A stretch of 64,000 nt of DNA from Candidatus Lustribacter sp. (GCA_965277805.1 OZ255842.1:4832001-4896000), one strand, 5' to 3'. Positions 40,871 through 55,571 are shown, numbered from the stretch's first letter. Translations and numbers: made by a program. Notes: generated by a model from the letters alone, not told the origin.

Positions 40871-41098
40871 CTAATACGTTTTCTTCTTGGTTTGCACCGG
40901 GTTGGGGTGCTCTGTCGGCGCCGGGGTCGGCGCATGCGTTGATTCCACTACAGGCCCGCCGATATGGACGTACGGCTTTGCGAGATCCCATGCTGGCATT
41001 TCAATAAGGGCAAGAACACCGAGGACAATGGCGACTATCCAGCCCGTTCTACCGTCTTTGTTCTTCGCGAGCGTCTCGAGGTTCCCCCATTGTAACAC
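40871..41098 (-). CDS. Small single-TM protein
   Basis: GWIVAIVLGVLALI plus Pro/Thr tail. Confidence 0.5.
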   Translation of the reverse strand: MLQWGNLETLAKNKDGRTGWIVAIVLGVLALIEMPAWDLAKPYVHIGGPVVESTHAPTPAPTEHPNPVQTKKKTY

Positions 41099-41253
41099 TT
41101 TACTAAAACGGACGTCTGGCTAAATGTTACAGAGCGCGCTTACGACTGTGTTGTCATCAGGCGATGCGGAAGTTCCCCCCGATAATTGGAGACCCAAAGG
41201 TGCGGGCCGGCCAGATCAATGGGTGCGCTGGCTACATGCTCGGGGGCCATTAT

Positions 41254-42537
41254 CTAGGTCTTCTGGCCTAGCAAATGCTCAATTTCCAATCGGCGCTGCG
41301 CTGTCGGCGGAAATGCTTCGTCAGAATCCATAACGCGAAGAATCTGAATCATCGGTCGATCTTCATCTGTTGCGAAGATATCGTCATTTCGCGCGGTATC
41401 GTTATCACCCGAAGTAGAGAGGACCGCCGCGACTCGGTTTGAGCCTGGATCATAAAATCCATAGAAGCGTTGGAACGGACAAGCATGTGGTTCGCATTCA
41501 TCGAAAATAACATATTGGCGACCATTTTGATCCACGAGCAGTTTTAGAGTCGATGCAACTCCGCCCGCGCCTTCTATCCATCGCGCTGACTTGCCGCGAG
41601 AAGTTCGCTCGGCGTCTTTAACGGCAGCGTTGAATGCGGAAGCGAACTTTGGATCACGGCGGTATAAGTCAAACGCATACGTAGAACCCGAGAGTGACGT
41701 CCCATCAAAGCTCGCGGGAAGCACTCCCGCTCTGAGCCCGAGAAAAAGCCGCTGGGCGGTTTCGATGTCGCTGACTTTCGGTTGCGTCGATTGAGTTTGT
41801 TGCGGCGCTGCCACCGGCGTGCCGGATGACCCGCTGAGATCCTTAGCTGCGTTGATTTCAACCGCAAGCCGATCATGCAAGTCCGACATCCGGCTCCATA
41901 TGCTATCCCACTGTGAACGACTTGCAGCCTCCTGTTCGTCCGAGGTCCTGTAAAGCGCAGCGACGTCCTCACTCGACCGATAAAATTGATGATTAACACT
42001 TGCGGCGACGCTGTCGTCGATGTCGCTAGCAGCGCGCAGCCAGTCGGAGAGACCCGTACCTTCTGCTTGGGATGCGGCGGAAATGTCAGCAATCAACGAC
42101 GACGTAGTTGCTTCACCGAAGTGGTCGCCTAAGGCAGTAGCCGCACCCCGCGCAGCATTCGCCTTCGCTTCTGAAAGCGCTCCGAGCTGTTCGACATCAT
42201 CCTTTTCGGTATTAATGTATCCGAGAATGTCCGCGTCGTCGCCCGGAGTTTTACTGTAGAGGTCGTGACGCTGTTGGCTCGCTTCCTCAGCATCCATTAG
42301 GACTTTGTCGTATTGATCTTTTGACGAAGAAAACTGCGCAAGTGTCGCATCGATGCGAGAGCCTAGCGCGCTTAGGCTTCGAAAATTCGCTAAGGCTACA
42401 GCTTGAGCCGCGGCGATGCGTGCTCGGTCCGCCGCGGCTGCGACATCGCGTTGGTGTTTTTCTACTCCGAACACTACGCCCGCACCGACAATGCAAATTA
42501 AGAAGACAAGGCCGAGGACAGTCCCTACCCGCTTCAT
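41254..42537 (-). CDS. Membrane-anchored coiled-coil protein with C-terminal Ivy-like lysozyme inhibitor domain
   Basis: N-terminal TM; WIEGAGG...YVIFDECEPHACPFQR resembles Ivy CKPHDC loop. Confidence 0.7.
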   Translation of the reverse strand: MKRVGTVLGLVFLICIVGAGVVFGVEKHQRDVAAAADRARIAAAQAVALANFRSLSALGSRIDATLAQFSSSKDQYDKVLMDAEEASQQRHDLYSKTPGDDADILGYINTEKDDVEQLGALSEAKANAARGAATALGDHFGEATTSSLIADISAASQAEGTGLSDWLRAASDIDDSVAASVNHQFYRSSEDVAALYRTSDEQEAASRSQWDSIWSRMSDLHDRLAVEINAAKDLSGSSGTPVAAPQQTQSTQPKVSDIETAQRLFLGLRAGVLPASFDGTSLSGSTYAFDLYRRDPKFASAFNAAVKDAERTSRGKSARWIEGAGGVASTLKLLVDQNGRQYVIFDECEPHACPFQRFYGFYDPGSNRVAAVLSTSGDNDTARNDDIFATDEDRPMIQILRVMDSDEAFPPTAQRRLEIEHLLGQKT

Positions 42538-42927
42538 TTTGATAGCTTCTTCAGCGAGATAATCATCTCGGTACTCATGGAAGGTCGCCTCTCCCGGCGC
42601 GCAGCGCCTGACAGAGGGTGCGTCGGTGAAGCGCTCTGACTCCTGCTTGCCCGATCATATCCAAGCTTCACGCTGTCGAAGGAACGTGTTGCCGAGCTTA
42701 GGCCGGATGTCGACGGACAGCTAGTCGGCGAGGCCAACAACGTTCGTTTCTCTTTTTTCTTCCAGCCGACCGGAAAGTGCCGCAACTCACGAGCTTCGGC
42801 TCCGTGCGTCCGCGAATCGCCTTGGTGACCCCGATGCGTTCGAGCTCCTCGGCGGTGCTCACGCCGTCGTCGAAGCAGCCAACGGTCGGCTGTGGACCGA
42901 CCTGCCTGTTTGCGCCACCTCATCCAT

Positions 42928-43239
42928 TCAGGGATCGTACGTCGCCGCGGCAAACGCAGTGCGCTCGCGGCGCTCGGCGTTGCTGAGGTGGTGGCACCAT
43001 AATTCAGCGACCACGCTCGGGTCGTCTTCAAATGGAACAAAGTCAACCGCGATCACGACGAAGCTGTCTTGGCCACCGCCATCTTCCGCCGGGATATGCA
43101 GTTCTTTGCGATGCTCGTCGGACAGCTCAATGTTAACAAATTCACCGACGCATGGAACTCGCTCAAACGTTTGTTCGAGATTCATAACCCGCGTTAGAGT
43201 CTGCGTCGGACCGTAGAGATGAACAAAGACTGATCTCAT
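42928..43239 (-). CDS. Hypothetical protein directly after terL
   Basis: TGAATG junction. Confidence 0.6.
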   Translation of the reverse strand: MRSVFVHLYGPTQTLTRVMNLEQTFERVPCVGEFVNIELSDEHRKELHIPAEDGGGQDSFVVIAVDFVPFEDDPSVVAELWCHHLSNAERRERTAFAAATYDP

Positions 43240-44505
43240 TCAGAAGCCTTTCGAATTTCCGCGCGTCATCAACACGCCGTAGCAGAATGTATCGAGCAGA
43301 TCTAGGCCGTCGCTCGCTTTGGAACCCACGCGGAAGTTCGTCACCTGTTTGATGAGGTGGTTGGCCGAGATACGCTTGTGGACTTTCGTCTTGTTGTAGG
43401 CGCGATCGGTGATCTTCACGTCGCCGGCATAGACGTACGGGCTCGCTGCAATCGCTCTTTCGTCTTTACCTAGAGCGGTAAGCTTTGAGTCGATCGCATG
43501 TGCCGGCCAGCCAGCATTGCGCGCCTGCTGCAGAAGCACGATGCCCGTGCCCTTTTCCTCAATCAGGGCGCCCGCCGAACCGTTCCGCGCCCCGCAGATC
43601 CGCGCAAGATCCTCGCACCGCTGAAAGATGGTCGGGAGCCAATTCGCCTGATCGGCCCCTTCGATAGACAGGACATCCCAATCGAGGATGAGCGTTTGCG
43701 GGTGCGTCAGGCTGTTGTAGCTCCACCACGTTACGCCGGTGGAGTTGTGCTCGGTGCCGCTCTTAATCGCCGTGTCGACCGTCGCGAGCACCACATCGCA
43801 GCGATCGGGGAACGGAGCGGGAGCCCCATTAATGAGCAGCGAGTCCAACGGGAAGAACGCAACGCCCGACCAGTCGACGAACTCGGCGAGGTACTCTTGC
43901 CGGTAGACCTCTGGTGAGTTTTCGAGTTCGAGCTTGGCGACCTCATCGGCGGGCAGGTAGGGATTCGTCGACGTCGGGGCGTGGAACTCGACGAACTCGC
44001 TCTGCGGGTCGTTGCAGATTGTGTAGAACCAGTTATCTTCGTCCTTGCCGGCGGGCGTAGAGAACACCCAACCAACCCCCCCGAAGTCGAGCAGCGTCGG
44101 CTTGATCGACTTGGACCAGATCTCTTCCATCTCGGGACCAGCGAACGCAGCTTCGTCAATCATGACGCCGTGATAATGGCGAGAGCGACCGGCGCGCTTG
44201 TTATTGAGCGTCCAGAAATCGACGCGCCCCCCGCCCGTGCAGCGAATGACCCCATCGATTTTCGAAGCCGAAATCGTGATCGGGTCAAGGATCTCGAAAA
44301 TCTCGCGATAGGTCTCGGACGTGATCTTGTAATCGGGAGCGAAAAGGCCCCATGATTCGCCGCGGGCAACGCGATCGCAAATGATCGTTGAGGCCATCGC
44401 CGTCTTGCCCCAGCGCCGCCCGCACCGGATGACCTTATATCGGCCCAGCACCCTCCACGCATCGATCTGGCCGCTATGCAGCTGCGGCAGCGTTATTGTG
44501 GGAAT
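43240..44505 (-). CDS. terL: Terminase large subunit
   Basis: CGRRWGKT Walker A, VMIDEAAF Walker B, FSTP, nuclease VDTA...DLLD; start apparently ATT. Confidence 0.9.
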   Translation of the reverse strand: MPTITLPQLHSGQIDAWRVLGRYKVIRCGRRWGKTAMASTIICDRVARGESWGLFAPDYKITSETYREIFEILDPITISASKIDGVIRCTGGGRVDFWTLNNKRAGRSRHYHGVMIDEAAFAGPEMEEIWSKSIKPTLLDFGGVGWVFSTPAGKDEDNWFYTICNDPQSEFVEFHAPTSTNPYLPADEVAKLELENSPEVYRQEYLAEFVDWSGVAFFPLDSLLINGAPAPFPDRCDVVLATVDTAIKSGTEHNSTGVTWWSYNSLTHPQTLILDWDVLSIEGADQANWLPTIFQRCEDLARICGARNGSAGALIEEKGTGIVLLQQARNAGWPAHAIDSKLTALGKDERAIAASPYVYAGDVKITDRAYNKTKVHKRISANHLIKQVTNFRVGSKASDGLDLLDTFCYGVLMTRGNSKGF

Positions 44506-44876
44506 TCGGGCAGTCCCCCGACGATTGTGATTTTCACGTCGGAAGGGACCGCATCGGCCTTCGGCGGCCCATAGAACTCGCGGAAGCGGCGCTCGAGCAC
44601 CCAGGTGGCCTGAGACGATCCGGTACCGCCCTCGAGCGCCTTGCAATGGAGATGGACTCCGCCACGCGCGACAGCGCGCATGATCCGATCGGCAAAATCC
44701 GGATACTGTTCTATCCAACGGTGAGCGGTGCTGCGGCTGACCCCCTCCGCCTCCGCAGCGAGAGCGACCGGCACGCCAAGCTCGAGATGGGCGCAAATCG
44801 CCTTCGCGATCGCTGGATCGACTTTCGCCTTTGGCGGTCGGCCGACGGGGCGGACTGTTTTCGGTCGTTCGCTCAT
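44493..44876 (-). CDS. terS: Terminase small subunit (HTH)
   Basis: GRPPK, AAEAEGVSRSTAHRW, WVLERRF; overlaps terL. Confidence 0.75.
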   Translation of the reverse strand: MSERPKTVRPVGRPPKAKVDPAIAKAICAHLELGVPVALAAEAEGVSRSTAHRWIEQYPDFADRIMRAVARGGVHLHCKALEGGTGSSQATWVLERRFREFYGPPKADAVPSDVKITIVGGLPEFPQ

Positions 44877-44889
44877 GTGAATTGCGTGC

Positions 44890-44910
44890 CTGATAATGGG
44901 TGGTTATCGA
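44890..44910. repeat. lox/dif-like site
   Basis: CTGATAA-tgggtgg-TTATCGA. Confidence 0.55.
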
Positions 44911-44952
44911 GTGCACGGATGATCTCGCCGACGACCGGAACGAGGCCACCCA

Positions 44953-46671
44953 TCAGAATTGCGCCGTTGCGTTGATCGACGTCGCTACGTTCGAAGCGGT
45001 CGAGTTGGTAACGTGGACGTTCACGGCCGGCTTCGAGGAGCGCGCCGCGCGCTGCGAGGCATAGAACTGCTTCGAAATGAGCGCTTCGAACTTATCGGCG
45101 TACGCATTTTGCGAGGGGTAGGAGTGGCCGCCGTAGGTCTGCGGCGCATTGAGTTGCGCCTGCGATTCATCCCAGCTCCCCTCGCCACCGTACCATCCGA
45201 GGGCGATCATGCGCAGGATCTTCTTCGGGTCACTCGTCCGCTTCTCGGCATCGTGCAGCAGCTGCCCATAGAAATCGTTAAAGGCGGCAGTCTGCGCCTT
45301 CGGGCTGCCGAGGAAGTTGGCGCGACCGCGAGCAGTGCTCGTCGACCCGTACTTCGCGATCCACGCCTTGCCGAGGTGCGCGTCCGCCGTGCCGGGCATG
45401 AACTGCCACCGTCCAAGCGCGCCGCTATCGGCGTTGACGGACGTCCAGGAGCCTTCGATGCTTCCCAGCGCGTCGGCGGCTGCAGTGCGCACAATCGGCG
45501 TGCTCAGAGACCTCAGAGTCGGCGCGCCGACGATGCGCTCAAAGACCTGCGCAACGCTCGCGGCCGCGTGTTGAAGGCCGTGAAGCGCGGGGGTGACGCG
45601 CCGCTGAATGGTCTCGCCCAGCGACGCCGCTGCCCCCTTCTCCCCGGTGAGTGCGCCAAGCACTTGCGCGATGACCGGATCGGCGCCGGAGAGGTGATTG
45701 ATCGCAAAGCTCTGCGCGGCGATCCCCGCACCCTCGACGGCCTTCTTGAACGTCGCCGCGTGCGAGACAGCAGTGCGCGTGAGATTCAGCCGGCCAGCAT
45801 TGCGGGCTTCCTCGGCCTGCGATGCGGCGAGGGCCGCCGGTCCTAGCTTGAGCGCATTCCGAACATCCCCGATGTCGCCGCCGAACGACCGGTACGCCTG
45901 GACCGCCGGGATGTTCTCGAGCGGCACATCCGGCATGGCCTGCGCCGCCTTGACCACGCCGCCGAGCATTTTGTAGGCGAGATCTGAGGCCGTCATGATC
46001 CGGGCTTTGTTGAAATCGATTCCGAGCAATGACAAAGGGCCGATATTGCCCAGGTTGAGCTGCGCGTTGGCGGCGGCTTGCAGTGCTCCCGGGCCCATAA
46101 ACTGCTGGCCGTAGACGCCGAAACTCGCTTCTTGGCCCGGCGTAATGCCTTTGCTAAACGCCGAGCGCTGACGCGTGACCGCAGCGTCCGCAAGGGCCTT
46201 TGCCGCAGCTCCAGCACCTCCGACGGCCGCGGCGATCGCGCCGGCCGCAAGTCCCACGGGCCCAAGCGCAGAGAGTGCTCCTTCCGCTACGCCAGCGAGG
46301 CCGGAGCCGACTTTGCTGATACTGGCATCGGCTGCGCCGGAAAATGCCTTCCACGCGCTTTGTCCCGTCGTGCCGATGTTCCGCACCGACTCGTGCATCG
46401 TCGAGAGGCTCTTGTTGTTCGAGGCGGTCGCTTTCGCAAACGCGCTCTGAGCAGTGGTAGCGTCACGCAGGTGCACCGCAATAAGATCGGCCTGTGCCGC
46501 GGCTAGTGCGAGAGACTCTTTTGCGGTCGCCCCAGCGCCGCCCATCGCCTTGTTGAGTGACTCCCATTTCTCGGGCTGCTCGTCGAGCGATTCCGAATAG
46601 CCCATAAAGAGGTCCAGGAATTTCTGAAATTTCGAATCATCGAAATCGATCGAAATAATAGGGCGAGCCAT
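44953..46671 (-). CDS. Tape-measure-like protein with C-terminal lysozyme-fold/transglycosylase domain
   Basis: Ala/Gly-rich helical body with hydrophobic segment; SIEGS...SGALGRWQFMPGTA...WYGG. Confidence 0.7.
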   Translation of the reverse strand: MARPIISIDFDDSKFQKFLDLFMGYSESLDEQPEKWESLNKAMGGAGATAKESLALAAAQADLIAVHLRDATTAQSAFAKATASNNKSLSTMHESVRNIGTTGQSAWKAFSGAADASISKVGSGLAGVAEGALSALGPVGLAAGAIAAAVGGAGAAAKALADAAVTRQRSAFSKGITPGQEASFGVYGQQFMGPGALQAAANAQLNLGNIGPLSLLGIDFNKARIMTASDLAYKMLGGVVKAAQAMPDVPLENIPAVQAYRSFGGDIGDVRNALKLGPAALAASQAEEARNAGRLNLTRTAVSHAATFKKAVEGAGIAAQSFAINHLSGADPVIAQVLGALTGEKGAAASLGETIQRRVTPALHGLQHAAASVAQVFERIVGAPTLRSLSTPIVRTAAADALGSIEGSWTSVNADSGALGRWQFMPGTADAHLGKAWIAKYGSTSTARGRANFLGSPKAQTAAFNDFYGQLLHDAEKRTSDPKKILRMIALGWYGGEGSWDESQAQLNAPQTYGGHSYPSQNAYADKFEALISKQFYASQRAARSSKPAVNVHVTNSTASNVATSINATAQF

Positions 46672-46909
46672 AGATCTACCGTCCTTCACTTCGTGACAAC
46701 CGACGCGAGCGGCATCCGATGTCGCAGTATCTCACGCTAGCCCTCAAGTGTCAGCACCGACGTATCGGAACGAACGGCGTCACGCACGGGACGACCGGGC
46801 TTTCGCCCGACACGGGTCGCGTCGTGCGTCCGATAATAGGACCGTTACTGAAAACGATGAGCGGGCTCGCGCGTAACGCGCGTGGGCGATGAGCGTTTCG
46901 GAAAATGTC

Positions 46910-47089
46910 TCAGATGACATCATCGGCCTCGATCGTGACGACGAGGCGGATGGGAACCTCGTCCTCGGGAAGAGCGTCCTTGCGGACGTAGACGTACCGC
47001 ACCGGCGCGGTCACCTCATCGGCTTCGTAGCGCCAGTTCCGCATCGTCTCTTTCTCGCGGTGCAGGCGGACCTCGATCGGCTCCATCAT
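46910..47089 (-). CDS. Small hypothetical protein
   Basis: MMEPIEVRLHREKET...YVRKDALP. Confidence 0.55.
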   Translation of the reverse strand: MMEPIEVRLHREKETMRNWRYEADEVTAPVRYVYVRKDALPEDEVPIRLVVTIEADDVI

Positions 47090-47099
47090 CGATCCGCCA

Positions 47100-47519
47100 T
47101 CAGAGGGACCGCAATCGCTGTTCCAGCGCCTGCTCTTGCCGATCCAGATATGCGTCGCGTTCGGCTGTTGTGGCGAAACGCGCCGGCGTGCTTGGGGCAG
47201 GCCGGCTGAGACGCTTCGGTCTACGGCGGGCTGCGGGTTCGGGTTGTTCCGCTTTACGCGCGATCGGTGTCGGGGTTGCGATGGCAAGTCGCTCGAGAAC
47301 CGCGGCGCAGAAGGCTTCCGCGAGGACCGGCTCCAGCCAAAACGTTCGTTTGTGCTCATCGCCGATTGAGCGAGGCTTTGCGAACGCCGGTTTACCCACG
47401 GGCGCGAAGATGCAGATGTCGAACTTCCCGAACCCCGAGACGGCGATCGTTGCTGCGGCGACGAGACTGCCGTACTTTAGGCGCTCAACGGCCACGATGC
47501 GGAACGCTGGCTGCATCAT
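47100..47519 (-). CDS. Hypothetical protein
   Basis: ATGA overlap with upstream gene. Confidence 0.55.
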   Translation of the reverse strand: MMQPAFRIVAVERLKYGSLVAAATIAVSGFGKFDICIFAPVGKPAFAKPRSIGDEHKRTFWLEPVLAEAFCAAVLERLAIATPTPIARKAEQPEPAARRRPKRLSRPAPSTPARFATTAERDAYLDRQEQALEQRLRSL

Positions 47520-47872
47520 GACGTTGCCGGCCCTGAGCGCTCGACGCAGCGCCAGCAAATCCAAGAGCCGTTCGCATACTGGACACAGCGATCGATCTTC
47601 AGACAGCAACCGCACAGGCGTCCGCCGGCACTGAGGGCGCCGATCGCGGCCGCTACAACCGCTGAGGCTCGTGCTACTTCGACCGGTGAGCCACGGCGGT
47701 CGCAGACTTCGTACTCAACGAGCACTGCGCGGATCGCGTCGCGGTGCGGGCGAAGCCGCGTTACCCAAGCGTCAAGTTCGTCAGCCGGCGCGCGAACCCG
47801 AACCTCGGCGCCGACGACGGTGAATTCAAGCCCGCGCCGCCGCGCCTCGACGACGAGCGCCCACGCGTTCAA
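47516..47872 (-). CDS. TubC-N-like protein with C-terminal Cys cluster
   Basis: LVVEARRRGL...VRVRAP...LRPHRDAIRAVL; CGCC...CWRC. Confidence 0.55.
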   Translation of the reverse strand: MNAWALVVEARRRGLEFTVVGAEVRVRAPADELDAWVTRLRPHRDAIRAVLVEYEVCDRRGSPVEVARASAVVAAAIGALSAGGRLCGCCLKIDRCVQYANGSWICWRCVERSGPATS

Positions 47873-49341
47873 AGCATTGCCTCGGCGACCGGCGCACTGC
47901 TTTTCGACACGGCAACGGGCTCGACGGGGCTGTTTTCGCGAGTGCGGTCACGGTCACGGTCAATATATATATCTGACCGCTGACCGCGTTCGTTTAAGGA
48001 CGACGAGGAACGGTCCCCGTCCGAAGGGCCGGGGGACGCGTTCTCATCTCCGGATCGGCCTGCGCGGTCACGAGTGCGGTCAGACGTGACCGCGTTCAAA
48101 CCCCCGTCGCTACTGTTGTTTACGCGAACGCGGTCACGAGTGCGGTCACGAGCGACCGGGTTCGCGAGTGTCGGGGCGACCTGATCAGGCAGCCCGTACA
48201 GCGTCTTTCGCTCTATTTTTCCGATTACGACGATCGTTTTGGCCTTCTTGAGCTGTTCGAACGCCCGTTTCATGTTGCCGCGGTCAGCGCCGAGGGCGAC
48301 GATTGTGAGCGGCCCCTCGGCCTCGAGCCGGTCCAGAATGGCGCTCTCGGCGTCGGTGACTTTTTCGGCGACAGCTTCCGGCGAGGTCGCGTCGGCCGCG
48401 ATGATAATCGAGCATGGTGGCTCGCCGGACTCGAGCCGCGCGGTAATGGGCCACTCCGTTCCGGCCGCTACACCGTCGAGCGGGAAGCGCGTCTTGTCGA
48501 CCTTGAGCGCATGCATCGGCCGGCCGTCGCGGGATTTCAAGACGAGGTGAATATCCACAGCTGCGATGATGTCTCGGGATCCGCTGACCCGTTCCCGATC
48601 GGAGTTAGAGACGGCACCGATCTTTCGAACGTGATGTGCGACCACCGCTGCGCAGTCGTATGCTTGGCAGAGGCGCAGTAGGACCGCGAATGGACGGCGG
48701 ACCTCGCCAGCATCGTTCTCGTCAATTTCGAAGAGCGCCCGAAGCGTATCGAACACGATCACCGCCGGGCGGATCTGTTCAATGAGCCGCTCAAGCCGCT
48801 CGCAGTCCTGGTCGTTGAACCGAAATGTGGCGAGCCCGTCGCAGCCTTCGAAGATGATCCGCCCGGGCGGTACCGCGCCCCCGAATCCGGCCACGGCTTG
48901 GTGCACGTACTGCCTGAGCAGATCGCGCCCCATTTCGCCATTAATGTAGAGCACGGGACGCCCCGCCGCAGCTGTCTCGAATCGGCCGGCCGCTAGCGCA
49001 TCGAGAGCAAGCGCCACTGACGCGTGCATGAGGAACGCCGACTTGCCGCCGCCCGTATCAGCCGACACCAGGGTAACACCGCGCTCGGCGATCAGATGCT
49101 CGACCACGAATTTCGGCGGCTCGTACGACTGGCAAAGCAGATCCGCGGCGTCCAACGTTTGGAGACCGGCATCAGCGCCATCGGTTTCCAAGCGTTCTCC
49201 GGGCTTCGGCGCTGCGGAAAGCGCCATCGCCTTTTCGACGAGGTCCTTAAGTTGGTCGACGGTGCCACCTTCGGCAATCCAATCCGAAACGTCGAAGCCA
49301 TCGCTACGCATTCGCATCAAGCTCCACGATCCGCACGTCAT
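47869..49341 (-). CDS. RepA-like AAA helicase (continuation of frameshifted primase)
   Basis: ADTGGGKS, VLYINGE, IVFDT, HHVRK, SGSRDI. Confidence 0.85.
   Translation of the reverse strand: MTCGSWSLMRMRSDGFDVSDWIAEGGTVDQLKDLVEKAMALSAAPKPGERLETDGADAGLQTLDAADLLCQSYEPPKFVVEHLIAERGVTLVSADTGGGKSAFLMHASVALALDALAAGRFETAAAGRPVLYINGEMGRDLLRQYVHQAVAGFGGAVPPGRIIFEGCDGLATFRFNDQDCERLERLIEQIRPAVIVFDTLRALFEIDENDAGEVRRPFAVLLRLCQAYDCAAVVAHHVRKIGAVSNSDRERVSGSRDIIAAVDIHLVLKSRDGRPMHALKVDKTRFPLDGVAAGTEWPITARLESGEPPCSIIIAADATSPEAVAEKVTDAESAILDRLEAEGPLTIVALGADRGNMKRAFEQLKKAKTIVVIGKIERKTLYGLPDQVAPTLANPVARDRTRDRVRVNNSSDGGLNAVTSDRTRDRAGRSGDENASPGPSDGDRSSSSLNERGQRSDIYIDRDRDRTRENSPVEPVAVSKSSAPVAEAML
47944..48148. repeat. 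Iteron cluster / putative replication origin
   Basis: Ten (G)CGGTCA copies in both orientations around ATATATATAT. Confidence 0.7.
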
Positions 49342-49762
49342 TGCAAACGGCCGTTAAAAGCGCCCCGCGCTCAGCCGCTGCCTCACGGCCCGGCGCGTCG
49401 CAGTCGGGGATAACGACGATTTGCTTCGCTCCCCGGAAGTGCTCAGTGAATTCGGGCGTATACTTCCACGCCGCACCACCGGCGTTTGTGGTGGCACAGA
49501 AGCCAAGCGATTCTAAAGACTCAACGTCCTTTTCACCCTCCACGACGAAGATCGTTTGGCCTTCGGCTTTGCGCTCGAGTAACTGCGGTAGGTGGAATGG
49601 AATGCGTTCTACGCCATCCATATGCCATGTGTGTCCGCCATGTTTGTCGCATCGGCGCTGACGAAAGGTCTTCGGGAAGAAGCGCACCACTTCGTAAATC
49701 GGAGTGCCGGCTGCGTCTTGATAGACGTACACCTTTTCGATGCCGCGCTGCGACGCTGTCAT
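49304..49762 (-). CDS. Toprim primase domain
   Basis: YVYQD..G...YEVVR...KTFRQ; VVEGEKD; IPDCDAPG. Confidence 0.85.
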   Translation of the reverse strand: MTASQRGIEKVYVYQDAAGTPIYEVVRFFPKTFRQRRCDKHGGHTWHMDGVERIPFHLPQLLERKAEGQTIFVVEGEKDVESLESLGFCATTNAGGAAWKYTPEFTEHFRGAKQIVVIPDCDAPGREAAAERGALLTAVCNDVRIVELDANA

Positions 49763-49995
49763 CTGCGGCCTTTCCTCGCTGGGAATAACTCACGCAGTTT
49801 TAAACCAACGGCAGCCATTATCGCAGCGATGGCGCAGCCGGAAAAACAACGGCAAAGAACCGTGCCGTCAGCAACTTCGCGAATGCTCAGCGAGGGCGAT
49901 CGATCGTCATGCGCTGGGCAACGAGCAATCCATTTTCGACCCGGCAATTCACGTACGCCATCGAGCCGCGGAAGCAACAAATCAATCGGCCGCAA
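49759..49995 (-). CDS. Stand-alone CHC2 primase Zn finger
   Basis: CPAHDDRSPSL...CFSGC; ATGA overlap with Toprim. Confidence 0.8.
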   Translation of the reverse strand: MRPIDLLLPRLDGVRELPGRKWIARCPAHDDRSPSLSIREVADGTVLCRCFSGCAIAAIMAAVGLKLRELFPARKGRR

Positions 49996-50188
49996 GAGAT
50001 CGGTCCAATTCCGCAGCGATCTGTGACCCGAGTCGCGCGTCCGGTAACGACATGTTAACGTGCACGCCATGCTCGGATTCGAGCATCTCCAAAATAGTAA
50101 GGAGGCGCGATGCGTCGTCGCAGTCGCCAAGTAGCGCAAGGCGTTCGCCTGCTCCTCCGCTTGCAAAGGCAGCCATCACATCATTCAT
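49982..50188 (-). CDS. Small hypothetical protein
   Basis: ATGA overlap with xis. Confidence 0.5.
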   Translation of the reverse strand: MNDVMAAFASGGAGERLALLGDCDDASRLLTILEMLESEHGVHVNMSLPDARLGSQIAAELDRSLAAD

Positions 50189-50427
50189 TGCGCCTTAACC
50201 ATGCTGCGTGCGATCCAAGCCAGCAATTCGCTAAACGCGATCCTTCGGTCAGCGCCGATCCTGACGTAACCGATTTCACCTGAGTTGATCAGACCGTGAA
50301 TCGTCGTTCGGCTGCAGCCCAGACGTATCGCCGCCTCGCTAATCGTCAACAACAGGGACTCGCAGCTGCTTTTGGGCTCGGACCGGTTCCGCGCGTCGCG
50401 TTTGTCTGTCCGTGGAAGGGCGTTCAT
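50185..50427 (-). CDS. Excisionase-family HTH protein
   Basis: LLTISEAAIRLGCSRTTIHGLINSGEI..VRIG..RRI. Confidence 0.85.
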   Translation of the reverse strand: MNALPRTDKRDARNRSEPKSSCESLLLTISEAAIRLGCSRTTIHGLINSGEIGYVRIGADRRIAFSELLAWIARSMVKAQ

Positions 50428-50480
50428 GTTCGTGAGCGTAGTTGTTACAAACGGCAATTTCCTAATGCGAGCATATCCAC

Positions 50481-51386
50481 TTGACGACAGTGAATGAAAA
50501 TAAGAAGGGTCTCCGGTGGCGCAAGACGGCCAACGCCATACTGACCGCGGCTGGTGTCAAACAGTCTTCCTTGGCCGCGGAGATCGGCGAAAAGGCGGGC
50601 TACGTCAATCGGTATTTGACGGGGAGGCGGATGCCGTCGCTACACGATGTGGAGCGTATCAATCGCGCGATCGCGCAACTCTCAGGCCTCGATAGAGTCG
50701 TCGACCTTCTCGAATTCGAAGCCCTCGCTAGCGGACTGCTCCCGGCGCGGGCTCTCACCGCCGAGGAGTTGGCCCGGGGCGCCAACCGCATTCTTTCGTG
50801 GTACCAGAGCTTTCTCAAACCGGGAACCACGAAGCGCATTATGGGGATCGCAGACACATTCGGTGAGTCGGCACGGCGCAGGCTCTTTATCCGCCTCAAT
50901 CTTGCGCTCCGGAGTATCGTGCTGGGGCAACTTCTGCCTTCCGAGCGCCCTGTCGGGCTCAGCGCGGTCATCGAGGCGCTCATCTCGAGCGGCATCCCGC
51001 TCGACGGAATCGAATCCGAACAAAGCACAAAGCTGCTCGCCTGGGAGCGCTTCGAATGTGTCGTGAACCACGAGATAGCCGCCGCCAATCCGGGTGCTTC
51101 GGCGCGTGAGCGCCTCGCCGCAGCTGGGCGCATTCGCGATGCCATCGATGGCATCGCGCTCGCTGCCGTCAATGTGAAGCCGGACTTCTCGGGACCGGCA
51201 GCTTTGATGGAGGTTACTAAGCCGGCGAGCGGCGCGCGCGAAAGCACGTTTCATGACGGCGCCCGCGCCGTGTGGGCACCATTTCAGCCGAAAGCACGGC
51301 ACTTCTTGAGCAATATTAACGTGCCGACTGCCGAGCCCATTGCAGGCCGTCCTTCGTCGCCGTCACGCCGCCGAGGCTCGCGGTGA
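50481..51386 (+). CDS. XRE-family repressor
   Basis: KQSSLAAEIGEKAGYVNRYLTGRRMP; divergent from xis. Confidence 0.75.
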   Translation: MTTVNENKKGLRWRKTANAILTAAGVKQSSLAAEIGEKAGYVNRYLTGRRMPSLHDVERINRAIAQLSGLDRVVDLLEFEALASGLLPARALTAEELARGANRILSWYQSFLKPGTTKRIMGIADTFGESARRRLFIRLNLALRSIVLGQLLPSERPVGLSAVIEALISSGIPLDGIESEQSTKLLAWERFECVVNHEIAAANPGASARERLAAAGRIRDAIDGIALAAVNVKPDFSGPAALMEVTKPASGARESTFHDGARAVWAPFQPKARHFLSNINVPTAEPIAGRPSSPSRRRGSR

Positions 51387-52791
51387 GCGAGGCCATGAGC
51401 TCGCGTTTCACTTCGTACTCCGCGCGATCGTAGAGAGGCCAGAAGTTCGAGAGGAGCCGCTTCGCTTGGTCGAAGTTGCGCCCTTTCGAATCCGTCGCGT
51501 CAACGCGCGCGCGGAGTTCCGCGAGCCGTGCGCGATCAGCTTCGGCCTTGTTGGCAAGGCGTCTTAGCTGGCGCTCGAGGTCCGCAGCCGCGTAGCTGCC
51601 GCCGATCGCGAGATCCCAAACGCGAGCCCGCGCGGCTTCGACCGTTGCGGGCGCAGTGGAGCGCTCAAGCGTTGCAATCTCACGACGAACCGCCTTCGCG
51701 TCATCGGTAGGGCGTTCACCGGCAACCCAGCGCTTCAGTAGATTTTCGTCGGCCGTAAGCATTCCGATCTGCTCGCGAAACCAGCCCTCCATCCGCTCGG
51801 CATTAATTGCCACGAGGCAAACGCGGCATTGATAGTACCGAATCCGCTTTGCGTCATATACGACCATTTTTCCGGACGCAAGCTTCTTGCGAATCACTCC
51901 CGAGCTCGAGTGTCCGCTAAATGCGCGGCCGCAACCCGCGCAGCGTACGGCGCCGGAAAGCGGATATTCCGACATGCGGGTTTGACGCCATCGCGGTTTA
52001 CCCGCGATGAGCGCTTGCACGCGGTCGAACAATTCTGGCTTCACGATCGTCCCGCGATAGCGACGCTGTACGAGTAATTTCTTCATCCGGTTTGATTCCC
52101 AGACGTGCTCGCGGCTGCGATAGATCGGCTTTCCATCGCTACCTAGCCGCGGCGTACGCACGACGTGAGGCGGCGCCCCTTCCGCAAAGCGGATCCCGAT
52201 CGTCTTGAACCCAACGCCGGCGGCATACCACTCGAAGGCTTTGCGGACCCACTCCGCACTCTTGGGCGCGGGGGCGTCGCGCTCGCTGTCGAGCTGCAGC
52301 CCGTACGGCACCTTATTCGATGTCGGCTTGCCCTCACGTCGACGGCGTTCCCACGATGCGCGGGCGCGATTACTGCGAGCCTCGTTCTCGGCTTCGCCGC
52401 CCATCGCCTGACCAGCGAGCGCGGCGCGCTGCGCGAACGTCTCGGCTTTGATAACGCCAGCGTCGCGGACGAATAGTTCGACCTTCATACCCTTGAGCGC
52501 ACGCGCGACGACGAGCGTGTCGGTCATGTCGCGTGAGAGCCTGTCCAATGAAGTCACAGCAAGCTGCTGCGGTCGCTTAGCGGCCGGCAGCTCTTGCAAC
52601 GCGGCGATCATGCGTTGAAATTCAGGCCGGCCGATCGTCGTCTTGGCCGAGGCGCGCTCTTTGAAGATCGTGATGGCCTGGTCGGCTGCTGCCGCGTGCT
52701 TCCTAGCCCATCGCTCTTGTTCATCGAGCGAGAGTTCTTGCTCGCCCTTCGTCGTGCTGACGCGACAGTAGGCCCAGATTCCGTGCGGCAT
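51316..52791 (-). CDS. Large serine recombinase (integrase)
   Basis: YCRVST, SLDRLSR, PYG, Zn ribbon CAGCG...YYQC, coiled coil. Confidence 0.95.
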   Translation of the reverse strand: MPHGIWAYCRVSTTKGEQELSLDEQERWARKHAAAADQAITIFKERASAKTTIGRPEFQRMIAALQELPAAKRPQQLAVTSLDRLSRDMTDTLVVARALKGMKVELFVRDAGVIKAETFAQRAALAGQAMGGEAENEARSNRARASWERRRREGKPTSNKVPYGLQLDSERDAPAPKSAEWVRKAFEWYAAGVGFKTIGIRFAEGAPPHVVRTPRLGSDGKPIYRSREHVWESNRMKKLLVQRRYRGTIVKPELFDRVQALIAGKPRWRQTRMSEYPLSGAVRCAGCGRAFSGHSSSGVIRKKLASGKMVVYDAKRIRYYQCRVCLVAINAERMEGWFREQIGMLTADENLLKRWVAGERPTDDAKAVRREIATLERSTAPATVEAARARVWDLAIGGSYAAADLERQLRRLANKAEADRARLAELRARVDATDSKGRNFDQAKRLLSNFWPLYDRAEYEVKRELMASLTASLGGVTATKDGLQWARQSAR

Positions 52792-52809
52792 GGTCGATAT
52801 GTGTTGACT

Positions 52810-54525
52810 CTATGCGTAATTTCCTTTATGCTCGCCGTGGGGATGTGTAAGGAGCATCAAGTCGATCTGGTGGACGCCGGTGCGGCGCAGGTAGCCGAGC
52901 ACGATTCGTGTGCCGGCGCGTTCGGCGTTGGAGGTGGGGCCGGAACGTTCGAGTTCGCCGCCGGTGTCGATGAGGATAACGTGGTCGTGCGGGGTGCGGA
53001 TGACGGCAGCATCGGCCTGCCCGACGTCGAGGTGCGTGATCTCGAGGCCGTGCGGGAAATGCATGAGGGCGGGGAGCGCGACGATGACGCAAGCGCTTGC
53101 AAATGTGCCGGCGGCGAGAGTCGCGCGGCCGTGCCGTAACGCGACGGCGGCGGCGATCGCCATGACGTCGTAGGCCACGATCGCGGTAATGGGTGGAGTC
53201 GCCAGCGTCGCGCGCGCGCCGGGGAACGCTGCAATCGTGCGGACGATCGTCTCCGCCGTAAGCAACAACAATGTTTCGAGTGGCGCGAGCGGCGGCAGCA
53301 CGAGCGTCGCGATTCCGACGATGAGGATCACAGCGACGAGCGGTACGACGATCGCGTTAGCGAGAATTGCGAACGGCGCGAGCGTGGAGAAGACGGCGGC
53401 GGTCAGCGGCCAGGTACCGATCTGCGTCGCGCAGGTTAGTGCCAGTGCTTCCCGCACGCGCTCGTGCAGGGGTAGTGCCTCGAGAGCGCGCGCGATCGGT
53501 TCGGCGAAGAGCACGATGGCGGCGACGCACGAGAACGACAGCGCAAACGATGCGCTGCCGGCCGCCGCCGGCCACAAAAAGGCGACGACCAATCCCGCCA
53601 GGGCCAGAGCATTCCACGATGTCACCCGCGCGCCGCACGCGCGTGCCAGCAAGGCGACACCGATCATGGCCGCCGCGCGCTCCGACGGCAGATGCGCGCC
53701 CGTAAACCACGCATACGCGACGATCAGCACCAGCGCAATAGCGCACGCCGCGATGCGGTGCAATCCCAGTAGGGCCAGCAAAAACGCGACGAGGCCCGCG
53801 ACGATCCCTAAGTGCAAACCCGCGGTAACGAGCACGTGCACCGTGCCGGTGGCTTGGAAGGCGTCGTGGAGGTCGTCGGGCAGCGTGCCGCGCTCGCCCC
53901 ACAGCGCGCCGGCCAGAATCGTGGCCGACGGTTCGGGGATGCTCTCGCGTACCCGGTGCGAAGCGGCGGCGCGCAAACGCGCGGCCCACGCGCGCACGTC
54001 GTGCGCGTCCGGAGACGCACGCCCAAGCAAATGCACGCTCGCCAGCCGTCCGGCAAATCCATCGTCGCGTTCGATTTCGCGCATCGACGGTTCGCCCGGA
54101 TTACGCGGCTCATCGAACGGTTCGAGACGGCCGCGCACGACGATGCGTTCGCCCGGCATCACACGCTCGCGTAACGTCGCGCGCACCGTTCCGACGCCGT
54201 CGATTGCAAGCGCGGTGCTTGATAGGCCGCTGTCCTCTTCCTCGCGGACATCGCCGATGACGGTCGCGACGTAACGGGCGGTGGCGCGTTCGCTCGTGAG
54301 CGTCGTGGGATGTCCACGGAGTGCCGAAATTCCGGCACCCGCCGCACACGCGAGCGCCACGGCAACGATGGTAATCCGCAGCCGGCTGCCGCGGCCACAA
54401 TAAACCCACGAGGCCGTGCAAGCAAGCCCGACGGCCGTGCACGCCGCACCGGCCCACCCATGCTGCTCGGCGACGATCGCGAGGAGCGCGGCAATGGCGG
54501 GAACGAGCAGAGGAGCACGGCGCAC
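52810..54525 (-). pseudogene. comEC: comEC 5' part (competence domain and start of MBL domain)
   Basis: PRNPGE, TGTVHVLVTAGLH, LDVGQADA, LIDTGG, LTHPH then premature stop. Confidence 0.95.
52832..52842. other. Right attachment junction
   Basis: TCGCCGTGGGG. Confidence 0.9.
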
Positions 54526-54605
54526 GCGAATCTTTCACGCTTTTTACCAATGTAAACAAGCGAGCGGGATGGGAACGACCGGCGGGGGCGAAGCGTTTGT
54601 CCTTC

Positions 54606-55571
54606 ATGCGCATCGTGGTTACCGGCGGCGCCGGCTTTATCGGATCGCATCTTGTCGACGCATTTATTGCTGCCGGCAACGATGTCGTGGTGATCGACAA
54701 TTTGTGGGCGCACGGTGGTGGGCGCCGCGAGAATCTGCATCCGCGCGCGTCGTTCGTCCACATGGACATCCGCGACGAAGCCGTAAAACGCATTTTCCAC
54801 GAAGTCAAACCCGACGTCGTGGTGCATCACGCCGCGCAGCACAGCGTTGCGATCGGTGCGCGCGATCCGCAATTCGACGCCAATGTTAACATCGTCGGTT
54901 TTCTCAACGTGCTCGATGCTGCGGTCGCTGCCGGCACGCGCAAGGTGATCTTCGCCTCGAGTGCGGCCACCTACGGCGACGTTAGCCAGCTGCCGGTCGA
55001 TGAGAGCACGCTGCAGCGCCCCGTTTCGCCGTACGGTATCTCGAAGATGGTGTCCGAACACTATCTGCGCTTCTATCAGTCCGAACACGGCCTCGATTAC
55101 ACGAGCCTGCGTTACGGCAACGTCTACGGGCCTCGCCAGGATCCCAACGGCGAAGCCGGCGTGATCGCGATCTTCTGCGCGAAGTTTCTCGCCGGTGAAG
55201 GCGTGCGTCTCGACTGGGACGGCGAACAGTCACGCGACTACGTCTATGTGGGCGATGTCGTGCGCGCCAACGTCGCGGCCCTCACCAAGGGCTCGGGTGA
55301 AACCTACGTCATCGGCACCGGCAAAAAGACGACCGTGAATCAGGTCTACAAGGCGCTGGCTGCGGCCACCGGCTTCGAAGCGCCGATCACCCGGGCGCCG
55401 CGCCGGCCGGGTGATGCCCGCGAGATCTACTTCAACCCGGCGAAAGCCGCGCGTGAACTCGGCTGGAAGGCCGAGGTCGAGTTGAAGGCCGGGATGGCGG
55501 AGACTGTCGCCTACTTCCGCGAGCGCAGCGCGACTGCGCCCGCTCCCGCCTCCGCCTCCGCCTCGGTCTAG
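54606..55571 (+). CDS. UDP-glucose 4-epimerase-like NAD-dependent epimerase
   Basis: TGGAGFIGSH, YGISK, RYGNVYGPRQ. Confidence 0.9.
   Translation: MRIVVTGGAGFIGSHLVDAFIAAGNDVVVIDNLWAHGGGRRENLHPRASFVHMDIRDEAVKRIFHEVKPDVVVHHAAQHSVAIGARDPQFDANVNIVGFLNVLDAAVAAGTRKVIFASSAATYGDVSQLPVDESTLQRPVSPYGISKMVSEHYLRFYQSEHGLDYTSLRYGNVYGPRQDPNGEAGVIAIFCAKFLAGEGVRLDWDGEQSRDYVYVGDVVRANVAALTKGSGETYVIGTGKKTTVNQVYKALAAATGFEAPITRAPRRPGDAREIYFNPAKAARELGWKAEVELKAGMAETVAYFRERSATAPAPASASASV

Follow-up and report, generated by a model that had tools for sequence, protein, structure and literature searches.

A mobile element within comEC

The window analysed here, a stretch of 64,000 nucleotides from Candidatus Lustribacter sp., contains a comEC gene interrupted by a mobile element of 37.26 kb (approximately 15581-52842), whose bounds at the serine-integrase junctions were set by junction alignment. 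The junctions are precise, as comEC is restored when both are aligned with the uninterrupted comEC of L113. A 14-bp core is common to the two ends, attL at 15567-15580 (CCCTACGGCGATCA in the minus-strand reading) and attR at 52829-52842 (CCCCACGGCGAGCA, likewise in the minus-strand reading), and attP-like arms surround the core with the integrase beside it, at the very end of the element and 37 bp from attR. The 5' part of comEC (52810-54525, minus strand; Competence 1.3e-46, DUF4131 and the start of Lactamase_B) is broken within its HxHxDH motif and is 93% identical to the ComEC of G003. The 3' fragment, which carries the metallo-beta-lactamase end of the target on the left-hand side (14966-15580, minus strand; a stop-to-stop ORF with an HHGS motif), picks up the intact G003 comEC from the junction onward, and its protein shows just 65-67% identity to all ComEC proteins of the same genus. 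Public contigs contain the integrated form only, and all of them come from one sample, probably that of the assembly.

The backbone from integrase to terL occupies 9.6 kb in the right part of the element. The genes listed in the earlier note (integrase, repressor/xis divergon, primase, helicase, origin, small ORFs, tape-measure protein and both terminase subunits) were all found where it had placed them, by means of Pfam, PHROGs, homology to phage TMPs and a repeat search, with the Xis and the zinc-binding primase recognised by eye; the regulator lies on the plus strand and the coding genes otherwise on the minus strand. A large serine integrase (51316-52791, minus strand; Resolvase 1.9e-20, Recombinase, Zn_ribbon_recom; phrog_95 3.3e-53) is accompanied by an HTH_3 regulator, a repressor candidate (50481-51386, plus strand; HTH_3 2.1e-6), which is divergent from a Xis/AlpA-like HTH ORF (50185-50457, minus strand) that across 66 aa is 42% identical to its counterpart in L022. 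Then come an ORF resembling the Zn-binding N-terminal part of a primase (49759-50166, minus strand), assigned from its Cys/His motif by eye alone, a Toprim primase domain (49304-49762, minus strand; Toprim 2.2e-6, phrog_239 4.6e-17) and a RepA/DnaB-like helicase (47869-49341, minus strand; AAA_25 2.2e-28). The helicase has 16 homologues in a large protein collection, the best of them, P0139, at 77% identity; in P0139 and in L022, Toprim and helicase form a single fused protein, which a frame change divides here. Inside the 3' end of the helicase ORF sits an origin-like region (47931-48170, from the repeat search), in which GCGGTCA iterons in both orientations surround the AT-rich palindrome ATATATATAT. 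It is followed by small ORFs of 118 aa, 171 aa or 149 aa (46910-47872, minus strand) that match no Pfam or PHROG family; for the one of 171 aa a weak homologue occurs in L125, beside a helicase homologue. Among 2.9 million IMG/VR contigs this integrase-replication backbone has no close relative, whereas TerL and the tape-measure protein have them.

The left end of the element carries a tyrosine recombinase (15950-17062, plus strand; Phage_integrase 1.7e-12, Phage_int_SAM_1), beyond which extends a low-GC cargo (17075-42537; GC 0.53-0.62) with short ORFs on both strands and internal repeats. Pfam matches in the cargo comprise Schlafen AlbA_2, SocA_Panacea, DUF4268, Peptidase_C1 with GNAT, DUF4440 and Ivy, and nine cargo ORFs scanned with PHROGs gave no structural match. 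The DUF4268 ORF is a candidate anti-phage gene (22997-24148, plus strand; PADLOC PDC-S11, PDLC04911 E 3.7e-89) bracketed by inverted repeats at 22323-22384 and 24706-24768. The Ivy (lysozyme inhibitor) domain forms the C-terminus of a 427-aa membrane-anchored protein (41254-42537, minus strand; Pfam Ivy 7.5e-7 at 29.8 bits, the cut-off being 21), whose N-terminal hydrophobic stretch was recognised by eye.

Tape-measure and terminase genes and their phage relatives

Three genes of phage morphogenesis and one further ORF form a tight block, in which 76 bp separate the tape-measure gene from terS, terS and terL overlap, and the next ATG abuts the TerL stop. A promoter-like site upstream of the block (46726-46754, minus strand) comes from a consensus scan only, with 9 of 12 positions and TG. 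The tape-measure protein (TMP), identified by homology to phage TMPs, has 572 aa (44953-46671, minus strand; the ORF reaches 46689, with 46671 the probable start). It is full length against 13 homologues, and its N-terminal 340 aa are homologous to a TMP sited between tail chaperone and baseplate genes in all eight readable phage and prophage loci. Its C-terminal domain is lytic-transglycosylase-like: the homologues have a Pfam SLT domain at this position, and the E...S...G-x-x-Q...T motif of the lysozyme-like fold can be traced by eye. The domain itself has no Pfam match, no PDB sequence match and nothing in Foldseek at E <= 0.001; with VIA-align, residues ~391-549 place lytic transglycosylases and lysozyme-like enzymes at ranks 1-7, 9 and 10 of the ten best, a weak resemblance (Z 5.5-7.3) in a part of the model with pLDDT 63-72. 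Lytic transglycosylases are matched by residues ~395-545 at Z 6.4-7.3, likewise a weak score.

The small terminase subunit TerS (44493-44876, minus strand; phrog_4102 3.8e-9) is 53% identical to the terS product of phage contig L010. The large subunit TerL (43240-44505, minus strand; phrog_2 4.3e-33, Terminase_6N 4.5e-6) is full length and keeps every one of the 85 columns that are invariant among 34 aligned sequences, with best database homologues at 84-85% identity. The 569-aa ORF at 43240-44949 was rejected as TerL throughout; its TerL part starts at 44505, and the ~150 residues ahead of that point are an out-of-gene read-through that overlaps terS. No ATG, GTG or TTG is found at the conserved start position of TerL, which is ATT in the island and ATG in four related phages. 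ATT also stands at this position in L022, which is not a sister in the TerL tree, and the codon may therefore be a weak but working start rather than damage. The TerL stop codon TGA is directly followed by the ATG of a 103-aa ORF (42928-43239, minus strand) without Pfam or PHROG match, in agreement with the earlier description of a non-portal ORF at this place.

The closest homologues are P0004 and P0006 for TerL, P0124 and P0125 for TMP, and P0139 for the helicase; the gene-order counts given here are those of readable loci, with the contigs of P0004, P0006, P0124 and P0139 left out. The TMP and terminase genes have their relatives in complete, myovirus-like phages of ~50 kb (50-52 kb), here called the G061 type, whose members are the IMG/VR contigs behind L010-L012 and L108-L111 together with prophages in G362 and G189. 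Identity to these phages is 70-72% for TerL, 31-53% for TerS and 33-51% for the N-terminal half of TMP, and on the strength of these sequence relationships we take the three genes to be derived from a ~50-kb myovirus-like phage lineage infecting the host family. Gene order in the G061 type is terS-terL-portal-head-sheath-tube-chaperone-TMP-baseplate. TerL relatives lie within complete head-tail modules in L010-L013, G061, G062 and G362 (in the four readable nearest ones, L010-L013, a portal gene stands next to TerL in every case), as do the TMP relatives at the 8/8 readable loci. The earlier note would have counted such relatives against its satellite reading; they do exist, and they tell us that these genes came from phages but not what kind of element the island is. 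TMP upstream of terminase is indeed foreign to prophage order, as the note had held, since TMP belongs to the tail module in eight of eight readable relatives and lies ~22 kb after TerL in G061.

Other virion genes appear to be missing, as the earlier note had also claimed for the whole 37 kb. Sequence profiles revealed neither a portal nor a capsid nor any further tail gene when Pfam was run on 35 island ORFs and PHROGs on 20, and these searches found no head-to-tail adaptor or stopper either. When all 59 ORFs of G061 were compared with the island by tblastn, only TerL and TMP were matched and 57 of the 59 left no trace; the tail assembly chaperone and the post-TMP genes were among those without a match, and the small ORFs upstream of TMP match no family. 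The same 59 ORFs searched against the whole genome again gave TerL and TMP only, and thus no helper-type prophage. A terminase and a TMP without head, portal and other tail genes therefore point either to a phage parasite of a new kind or to a heavily rearranged dead prophage.

The latter would be what is left of a complete temperate prophage, myovirus-like and mosaic in its early region, that had inserted in comEC. Several deletions, together with one rearrangement or more, would have removed its head and tail genes, unrelated DNA would have come in, and TMP, terS and terL would be leftovers without a present role. Prophage remnants are in general far commoner than satellites, and such an origin is suggested by the nesting of TerL and TMP among the genes of complete ~50-kb phages, by a layout without a second copy in the genomes searched, and by two possible lesions, the frameshifted primase-helicase and the ATT start of TerL, which may together mean that this copy of the island is impaired. 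The unrelated backbone does not exclude a phage, because early regions vary greatly among related phages (G061 and L010 share one early gene only); its absence from IMG/VR nevertheless speaks against a remnant. The order TMP-terS-terL is beyond the reach of deletions alone, because TMP follows TerL by ~22 kb in the tail module of the relatives, and decay would require either a transposition or a tandem dimer that underwent two deletions, and in addition ~25 structural genes would have to be replaced, with ORFs left intact and tightly spaced each time. Furthermore, no fragment of other G061-type genes remains in island or genome by tblastn, TerL and TMP are without internal damage, and one of the two supposed lesions, the ATT codon, recurs in L022. 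A decayed prophage is a possible origin, to which we give clearly less than an even chance.

A candidate helper-dependent satellite

Four things are read directly from the DNA: which genes are present, where the junctions lie, the derivation of TMP, terS and terL from phages, and the lack of further virion genes. The best single explanation for them is that the element is an integrative, self-replicating island of PICI-like build and a candidate helper-dependent satellite, and in this combined reading we place about as much belief as doubt. The satellite proposed in the earlier note thus stands as far as its gene content and its missing head, portal and tail genes are concerned, and three points weigh towards the decayed prophage that the note names as its alternative (frameshift, non-ATG TerL, no second copy). 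As for the note's suggestion that the large cargo might fill a helper-sized head, the element measures 37.3 kb and the related phages 50-52 kb.

As a satellite, a backbone island would have acquired three morphogenesis genes (a TMP with a wall-cutting end, TerS and TerL) from the ~50-kb phage lineage, and the ~27-kb low-GC cargo would represent accreted accessory and defence genes. Infection by, or induction of, a helper phage of that lineage would be the trigger; G061-like prophages, possible helpers, are present in two genomes of the island's bacterial family. The island would then be excised from comEC by its integrase and Xis and replicate from its own origin, its TerS would select island DNA, and its TerL would dock onto the helper portal and fill helper capsids by headful. 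By analogy with the PLE example discussed below, the island TMP might be incorporated in helper tails, and the resulting particle would transfer the island into another cell for renewed insertion in comEC.

A different use of the same genes would be made by an integrative defence and cargo island whose TMP, TerS and TerL act as decoy or poison subunits, sabotaging phage tail assembly and packaging and not moving the island. The cargo does contain the candidate defence gene PDC-S11 and Schlafen/AlbA and SocA-Panacea domains, the Ivy-domain protein adjoins the TMP-terS-terL block, and satellites are described as interfering with helper tail assembly and packaging (PMC12987554; PMC11417361). However, TerL retains every invariant residue of working enzymes, which a decoy would not need, TerS, TerL, origin and integrase together are what self-packaging requires, and no known phage-interference gene was recognised in the island. 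Sabotage therefore appears improbable to us, and well behind decay.

Conservation of the order primase-replicase-TMP-terS-terL in other genomes, considered in the earlier note, was not borne out: searches with TerL (60 relatives and 400 genomes of the phylum), TMP (400) and helicase (400) gave no second copy of the island layout. Partial parallels were found. L022, an element of the same phylum, has the order int-xis-primase/helicase-terS-terL; beyond terL lie a gene that is not structural and a recombinase. In Alphaproteobacteria, a sister clade of TerL lacks a portal throughout and has the order ParB-methylase - DUF5681 - TerL - DUF3489 - DUF2924 - serine recombinase. It is conceivable, though we would sooner doubt than assert it, that the island is one member of a wide and so far unrecognised class of phage parasites with their own packaging motor (TerS and TerL), here also with a TMP, and no shell, which would need a helper only for capsids and the remaining tail; the alphaproteobacterial clade and L022 would be further branches, and the shared ATT of TerL a device keeping motor expression low until the helper comes.

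In the assessment of the satellite, the integration and replication modules, the tight TMP-terS-terL-103-aa block, the intact TerL and TMP and the L022 parallel were counted in its favour, as were the precise junctions, a gene order that deletions cannot produce, the missing traces of the other 57 G061 ORFs, a backbone without close relatives in IMG/VR, the possible helpers in the family and the precedent for a TMP on a satellite. Counted against it were the singleton layout, the portal-bearing phages as nearest readable TerL relatives and a length of 37.3 kb above PICI sizes, as well as the frame-split primase-helicase, the TerL ATT, the lack of a helper-type prophage in the genome and the occurrence of the integrated form only.

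Comparison with known satellites

PICI integrases are mostly of the tyrosine type; the island differs from PICIs in its large serine integrase and in having TerL and TMP. It shares with them, following the SatelliteFinder definition, the order integrase - regulators - primase/replicase with adjacent origin - small ORFs - terS, as well as accessory genes beyond those for packaging and the lack of capsid genes (PMC10085698). The regulation module of PICIs (AlpA, MerR or Stl-like) may have its counterpart in the HTH_3 ORF and, by eye, the Xis/AlpA-like ORF, and a primase-replicase with its own origin is present as Toprim, AAA_25 and iterons, with the fused gene divided by the frame change. TerS is the sole packaging gene of a PICI, without other morphogenesis genes, whereas the island also has TerL and TMP. 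At 37.26 kb the island is also far longer than the ~10-15 kb typical of PICIs, for which a median of 9.5 kb and few members at 20-28 kb are given (PMC10085698). No capsid-size redirection gene was recognised in the island.

The cf-PICIs resemble the island in combining phage-derived TerS and TerL with a PICI-like backbone, but they encode their own capsid, portal, head-tail adaptor and connector (PMC10085698; PMC10690885), of which sequence searches found none here, major capsid protein included. TMP is not among the genes that these descriptions report for cf-PICIs, and the island has one. Complete temperate tailed phages of the G061 type possess the full virion set in another order on an unrelated backbone, whereas the island has three of these genes only, and tblastn with the 59 ORFs revealed no portal, protease/scaffold, major capsid protein, sheath, tube or baseplate.

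PLEs use the helper's terminase and are not known to have a TerL of their own. Satellites of this group, which parasitise the Vibrio cholerae phage ICP1, build their own TMP into the contractile tails of the helper, so that chimeric tails result (PMC12987554), and use a serine recombinase (VEIME preprint). The island has a TMP and a serine recombinase like them, with no sequence relationship; PLEs are described as encoding in addition a tail assembly chaperone and a baseplate hub (PMC12987554), neither of which was recognised in the island. The EPIPs of Mycolicibacterium aichiense are likened to it by gene content: as the preprint describes them, they measure 11 kb and combine a serine integrase with an HTH regulator, TerS and a TMP, without tail genes, and it is suggested there that their TMP changes the tails of the helper (preprint 10.64898/2025.12.02.691453). 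They differ in size (~11 kb against 37 kb), in the phylum of the host, and in carrying head-to-tail adaptor, stopper and scaffold genes with no TerL listed, the reverse of the island. The TMPs of PLEs and EPIPs, as these sources present them, thus provide a precedent for a tape measure on a satellite (PMC12987554; preprint 10.64898/2025.12.02.691453).

Ends of the element and its comEC target

The host genome is a single contig of 5.53 Mb, and the island interrupts its comEC gene. The 5' part of the gene, encoding the first 571 residues of ComEC, is found at 52810-54525 on the minus strand (Pfam Competence 1.3e-46, DUF4131 and the start of Lactamase_B), and the remainder occupies the stop-to-stop ORF 14966-15826, the comEC fragment proper being 14966-15580. 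In the same-genus genome G003 the gene is uninterrupted (769 aa), and its DNA aligned to the window matches up to 52828 and picks up again at 15574. The two junctions have in common a 14-bp core, CCC[C/T]ACGGCGA[G/T]CA, located inside the HxHxDH motif; on the element side, their arms are imperfect inverted repeats of each other, and the gene for a large serine integrase starts 37 bp from the right core. Locating both junctions against G003 comEC gives an element of about 15581-52842, or 37.26 kb, which agrees with the 37 kb estimated in the earlier note. The flanks have a GC content of about 0.65, and values drop to 0.53-0.64 in the stretch from about 17 to 53 kb; no tRNA gene was found in the window.

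The protein identity of the 5' part (52810-54525) to four same-genus genomes drops with distance (93, 85, 77 and 68%), and the 3' part (14966-15580) is 65-67% identical to three of these genomes and 58% to the fourth (G005). The next conserved flank of G003 corresponds to about 8.4-8.5 kb of the window. Given this flank and the identity pattern of the 3' part, the left flank from about 8.5 to 15.6 kb looks foreign or replaced, and the two comEC halves have different histories. Within the DNA that G003 lacks here, a 1184-aa BTAD/AAA_16/TPR regulator (10690-14244) is encoded just left of the comEC fragment.

The four public sequencing runs that contain the element derive from one sample, the contigs of which hold the integrated form only; an excision joint at 52.83 kb was not found in the contigs of these four runs, and a fifth run under the same species label contains next to nothing of the organism. 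None of the runs listed as containing the element is an RNA run. A public contig from a run of the same sample, which is probably the assembly's own, is identical to 40010-54854 with zero differences, so the ATT start of terL and the frame split between Toprim and helicase are not obvious assembly errors.

Backbone, cargo and the search for virion genes

The right 9.6 kb of the island forms a backbone in which every gene except the HTH gene is on the minus strand. It comprises the large serine integrase (Resolvase, Recombinase and Zn_ribbon_recom; phrog_95 3.3e-53), a 301-aa HTH_3 protein on the plus strand (Pfam), a 90-aa Xis/AlpA-like ORF and a 135-aa Zn-binding primase-like ORF (both recognised by eye), a Toprim ORF and an AAA_25 helicase (Pfam, PHROGs), two or three small ORFs with no family match in Pfam or PHROGs, the tape-measure protein (TMP) with a promoter-like site upstream of it on the same strand (consensus scan), both terminase genes, and a 103-aa ORF whose ATG lies directly 3' of the TerL stop. 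A repeat search revealed an origin-like region (47931-48170) in which ATATATATAT is surrounded by GCGGTCA iterons of either orientation. Toprim and helicase are a single protein in the homologue P0139 (77% identical) and in L022, a locus from a record titled Vulcanimicrobiota MAG; in the island their frames differ and switch across the codons for ...ELDAN / RSDGFD.... An upstream extension of the Toprim frame was rejected, the alignment having run across a stop codon. The frameshift in the primase-helicase favours the reading of the island as a rearranged prophage remnant, which we consider a rather doubtful explanation of the whole.

Among 5.8 billion proteins, 16 are homologous to the helicase, the best being P0139 on a 32.9-kb contig and some of the others lying on contigs of 36-218 kb. 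It matches in 4 of 400 other genomes of the phylum, with a best readable context of just 4.5 kb, and in IMG/VR no close relative was found for either the helicase or the integrase. TerL, TerS and TMP apart, no island protein matched G061, a complete myovirus-like IMG/VR phage, or L010-L013, phage contigs with a related TerL; to judge from these comparisons, the island backbone differs from that of G061-type phages.

The earlier note had seen no structural module in the 37 kb, and three kinds of search bear it out. Pfam identified no structural family among 35 island ORFs (all those of at least 130 aa in a plausible frame included), nor did PHROGs among 20, and tblastn of 59 G061 ORFs against 15001-53500 (E <= 0.01) matched only TerL and the TMP N-terminus, with nothing else structural in the whole genome. 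The island would thus be without a recognisable capsid, a statement that leaves room for a very divergent one. Its sole portal-sized ORF (427 aa, 41254-42537) encodes a membrane-anchored protein with an Ivy domain (lysozyme/lytic transglycosylase inhibitor), some 400 bp downstream of the 103-aa ORF with which the TMP block ends; speculatively, this protein could shield the cell or keep out incoming phages of the same type.

Short ORFs on both strands make up the cargo, which has internal paralogues and repeats; a codon-usage gene caller trained on the host was of no help in this low-GC region. It includes a PDC-S11 candidate defence gene (E 3.7e-89), Schlafen/AlbA, SocA-Panacea and C1 peptidase-GNAT domains, and a tyrosine recombinase at the far left; that the element as a whole is an interference island seems improbable to us. 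The PDC-S11 (DUF4268) gene sits between imperfect inverted repeats of about 60 bp (22323-22384 and 24706-24768), like a small mobile cassette. The intervals 19539-21762, 33000-33611, 20179-20959 and 40551-40760 hold paralogous gene copies and small Cys-rich ORFs (CxxC...CxxH...CxxC), of which there are at least four; a 300-bp direct repeat of 95% identity links 21055-21354 with 33172-33471 and has a third, inverted copy near 19585-19650.

Terminase, tape measure and their phage relatives

On the minus strand, terS (phrog_4102 3.8e-9) accompanies terL (phrog_2 4.3e-33, Terminase_6N 4.5e-6). A 569-aa ORF was first read as TerL in its entirety; alignments of homologues uphold this from 44505 down, and the first ~150 residues are not TerL. 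The start codon at 44505 is ATT, with a GGGGGA run 8 nt upstream, and L010, L011, L012 and L013 have ATG at the same place. With L022, whose TerL also starts at ATT, this makes ATT in both portal-less loci and in none of the four portal-bearing ones. The codon could be either a weak working start or damage, and a TerL start other than ATG counts among the arguments for a remnant. Database TerL calls that start past the Walker A motif (10 of 45) were rejected as a sign of non-ATG starts, because one of them, P0034, is identical to the TerL of L010, which has ATG.

The closest TerL homologues, P0004 and P0006, are 84-85% identical. Among 8000 candidates scored, 3006 matched TerL at E <= 1e-5, many on contigs of 47-58 kb; matches in the GenBank phage collection reach at most 47% identity, all in complete phages, and four IMG/VR contigs carry TerL at 69-71%. 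In L010, the nearest readable relative (72% over 415 alignment columns), the portal gene starts 15 bp after TerL. G061 (50,132 bp, CheckV 96%) and G062 (51,817 bp, 100%) are whole phages with the order early genes, terS, terL, Ig-domain protein, portal (phrog_146 5.8e-42), head morphogenesis protein, protease/scaffold, major head protein, sheath, tube, chaperone, TMP and baseplate. Full head-tail modules in close relatives, which the earlier note had set against its satellite reading, are real for TerL and TMP, as G061 and G062 illustrate, and no such link to IMG/VR contigs was found for the helicase or the integrase. Within the phylum, TerL matched in 3 of 400 other genomes sampled (G362, where portal, head and further genes follow; G189, a partial match at a contig end; and G326, which may duplicate L022) and in none of 60 nearer relatives. 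Locus L136 (G326:C49:273297-273539) is an isolated C-terminal TerL fragment (residues 335-415, identity 62%) that has no further phage gene in the 10 kb around it; it shows the appearance of a genuine TerL remnant in this phylum.

The product of a 578-codon ORF on the minus strand (probable start at codon 7) can be identified from its homologues as a tape measure. The large protein collection holds 13 of these, with 33-69% identity across the 14-sequence alignment and P0124 (66%) and P0125 (61%) closest. All 14 sequences share an N-terminal helical part and a C-terminal tail (...NSTASRVAVS.NAAAQ), and the intervening domain varies, being Pfam SLT in four homologues and, in the window's subgroup, a different domain in which the motif G-A-L-G-R-W-Q-F-M-P-G-T was noticed by eye. 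In every readable relative (G061 and G062, all four IMG/VR contigs L108-L111 and both same-family prophages L106 and L107) the homologue is part of a contractile-tail module, flanked by the tail assembly chaperone gene on one side and baseplate genes on the other. That TerL and TMP both nest in phages is a further point for the remnant reading.

The lytic nature of the variable domain is moderately supported at best. In VIA-align, residues ~391-549, modelled with pLDDT 63-72, matched lytic transglycosylases or lysozyme-like enzymes in nine of the top ten ranks (1-7, 9 and 10) and a GH124 cellulase in rank 8, with Z scores of 5.5-7.3; an Atlas feature search, taken as a lead only, gave SLT and phage tail lysozyme at 0.88-0.89. 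Against it, there was no match in Pfam, among PDB sequences or in Foldseek at E <= 0.001, the Foldseek query being a poor model of the whole protein (mean pLDDT 48). As a single-protein query TMP found no close relative in IMG/VR, and the GenBank phage collection gave no match. Matching contigs by size across the TerL, TMP and helicase homologue lists yielded only one link, a 50,056-bp contig with both the TerL homologue P0018 and the TMP homologue P0135, and a metagenome scan for the context of the closest homologues gave a single 2.7-kb contig.

Portal-less terminase loci and known satellites

A distant parallel is provided by L022, whose TerL is 70% identical to that of the island. Its element (2606-15543) runs from a tyrosine integrase through a 342-aa ORF on the other strand, a Xis-like ORF (42% identity over 66 aa to the island's), a fused 891-aa primase-helicase, a 109-aa ORF, a ParB-methylase, terS and terL to an 869-aa protein without family match, which by eye resembles a Zn-ribbon plus PD-(D/E)xK nuclease, and a split serine recombinase. 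It is portal-less within the 5 kb 3' of TerL, where the contig stops and beyond which head genes are possible; neither a tRNA nor a convincing direct repeat was found at its ends. In a 54-row TerL tree L022 pairs with P0022 and is separated from the window by starred branches, so it is not the window's sister, and the ATT starts of the two apparently arose independently.

A genome scan gave 80 TerL loci; 65 of them have 4 kb or more of downstream sequence, and in 30 of these TerL adjoins a portal and head genes of G061 type. In a 69-row tree, which omits 15 loci whose TerL match is below 380 aa in one piece or contains stops, the clade with the window has as its sister group (support 87) 27 alphaproteobacterial rows, which form a clade of 100% support and come from Bradyrhizobium, Rhizomicrobium, Methylocapsa, Reyranella and other hosts, none with a portal (23 with full and 4 with short flanks). 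The loci concerned are L034-L065, L070, L072 and L093-L099, for example L059:6910-15395. A wider set of 34 portal-less loci conserves an unknown 250-aa protein, a ParB-methylase, one or two DUF5681 proteins and TerL, often followed by DUF3489, DUF2924 and a large serine recombinase, with no further conserved ORF family of at least 150 aa. No G061-type portal was found anywhere in five host genomes, the HK97-type capsid and portal Pfam matches of which lie far from the TerL loci, and within one genome a 4.7-kb cassette is repeated at 99.96% identity. The conserved set of genes may be an undescribed capsid-less terminase element, and the clade would deserve its own study even if the island is a remnant.

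We regard it as an even call that the island is a satellite-type element, possibly now impaired. Such an origin is suggested by a PICI-like backbone with its own origin, of a lineage unseen among viral contigs; by three genes of phage origin that are intact, closely packed and arranged as deletions could not have left them; by the lack of a scrap of other virion genes; by the L022 parallel and possible helpers in the host family; and by satellite TMPs as described in the available parts of reports on PLEs (PMC12987554) and EPIPs (10.64898/2025.12.02.691453). The base rate of prophage remnants, the large size and the absence of a second copy of the layout among the loci found speak for a remnant, in which case this is an ordinary genomic island of little importance. 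If a satellite-type element, it would represent a third strategy, with its own motor, its own tail ruler and a borrowed shell, and a natural test of two questions: how far a terminase can act on a portal not its own, and whether the tail of a helper can be retargeted by a tape measure alone. It would also be, to our knowledge, the first candidate satellite in its little-studied phylum.

PLEs borrow the large terminase of their helper, as do PICIs, P4 and EPIPs in the portions of the literature at hand. According to the sections available of the respective sources, PICIs carry TerS only, with a median size of 9.5 kb (PMC10085698), cf-PICIs and Streptomyces satellites carry TerL along with capsid and portal (PMC10085698, PMC10690885), and VEIMEs encode terS homologues and "motor-like ATPases" (VEIME preprint). 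PLEs encode TMP, chaperone and baseplate hub and form chimeric tails (PMC12987554), and EPIPs combine a serine integrase with TerS, TMP, adaptor and stopper (preprint 10.64898/2025.12.02.691453). No described satellite with TerS, TerL and TMP and no capsid was found in the literature searched, the supplementary tables of which might list one. As far as these partial sources go, the island thus differs from PICIs, cf-PICIs, Streptomyces satellites, VEIMEs, PLEs and EPIPs in joining TerS, TerL and TMP without head genes.
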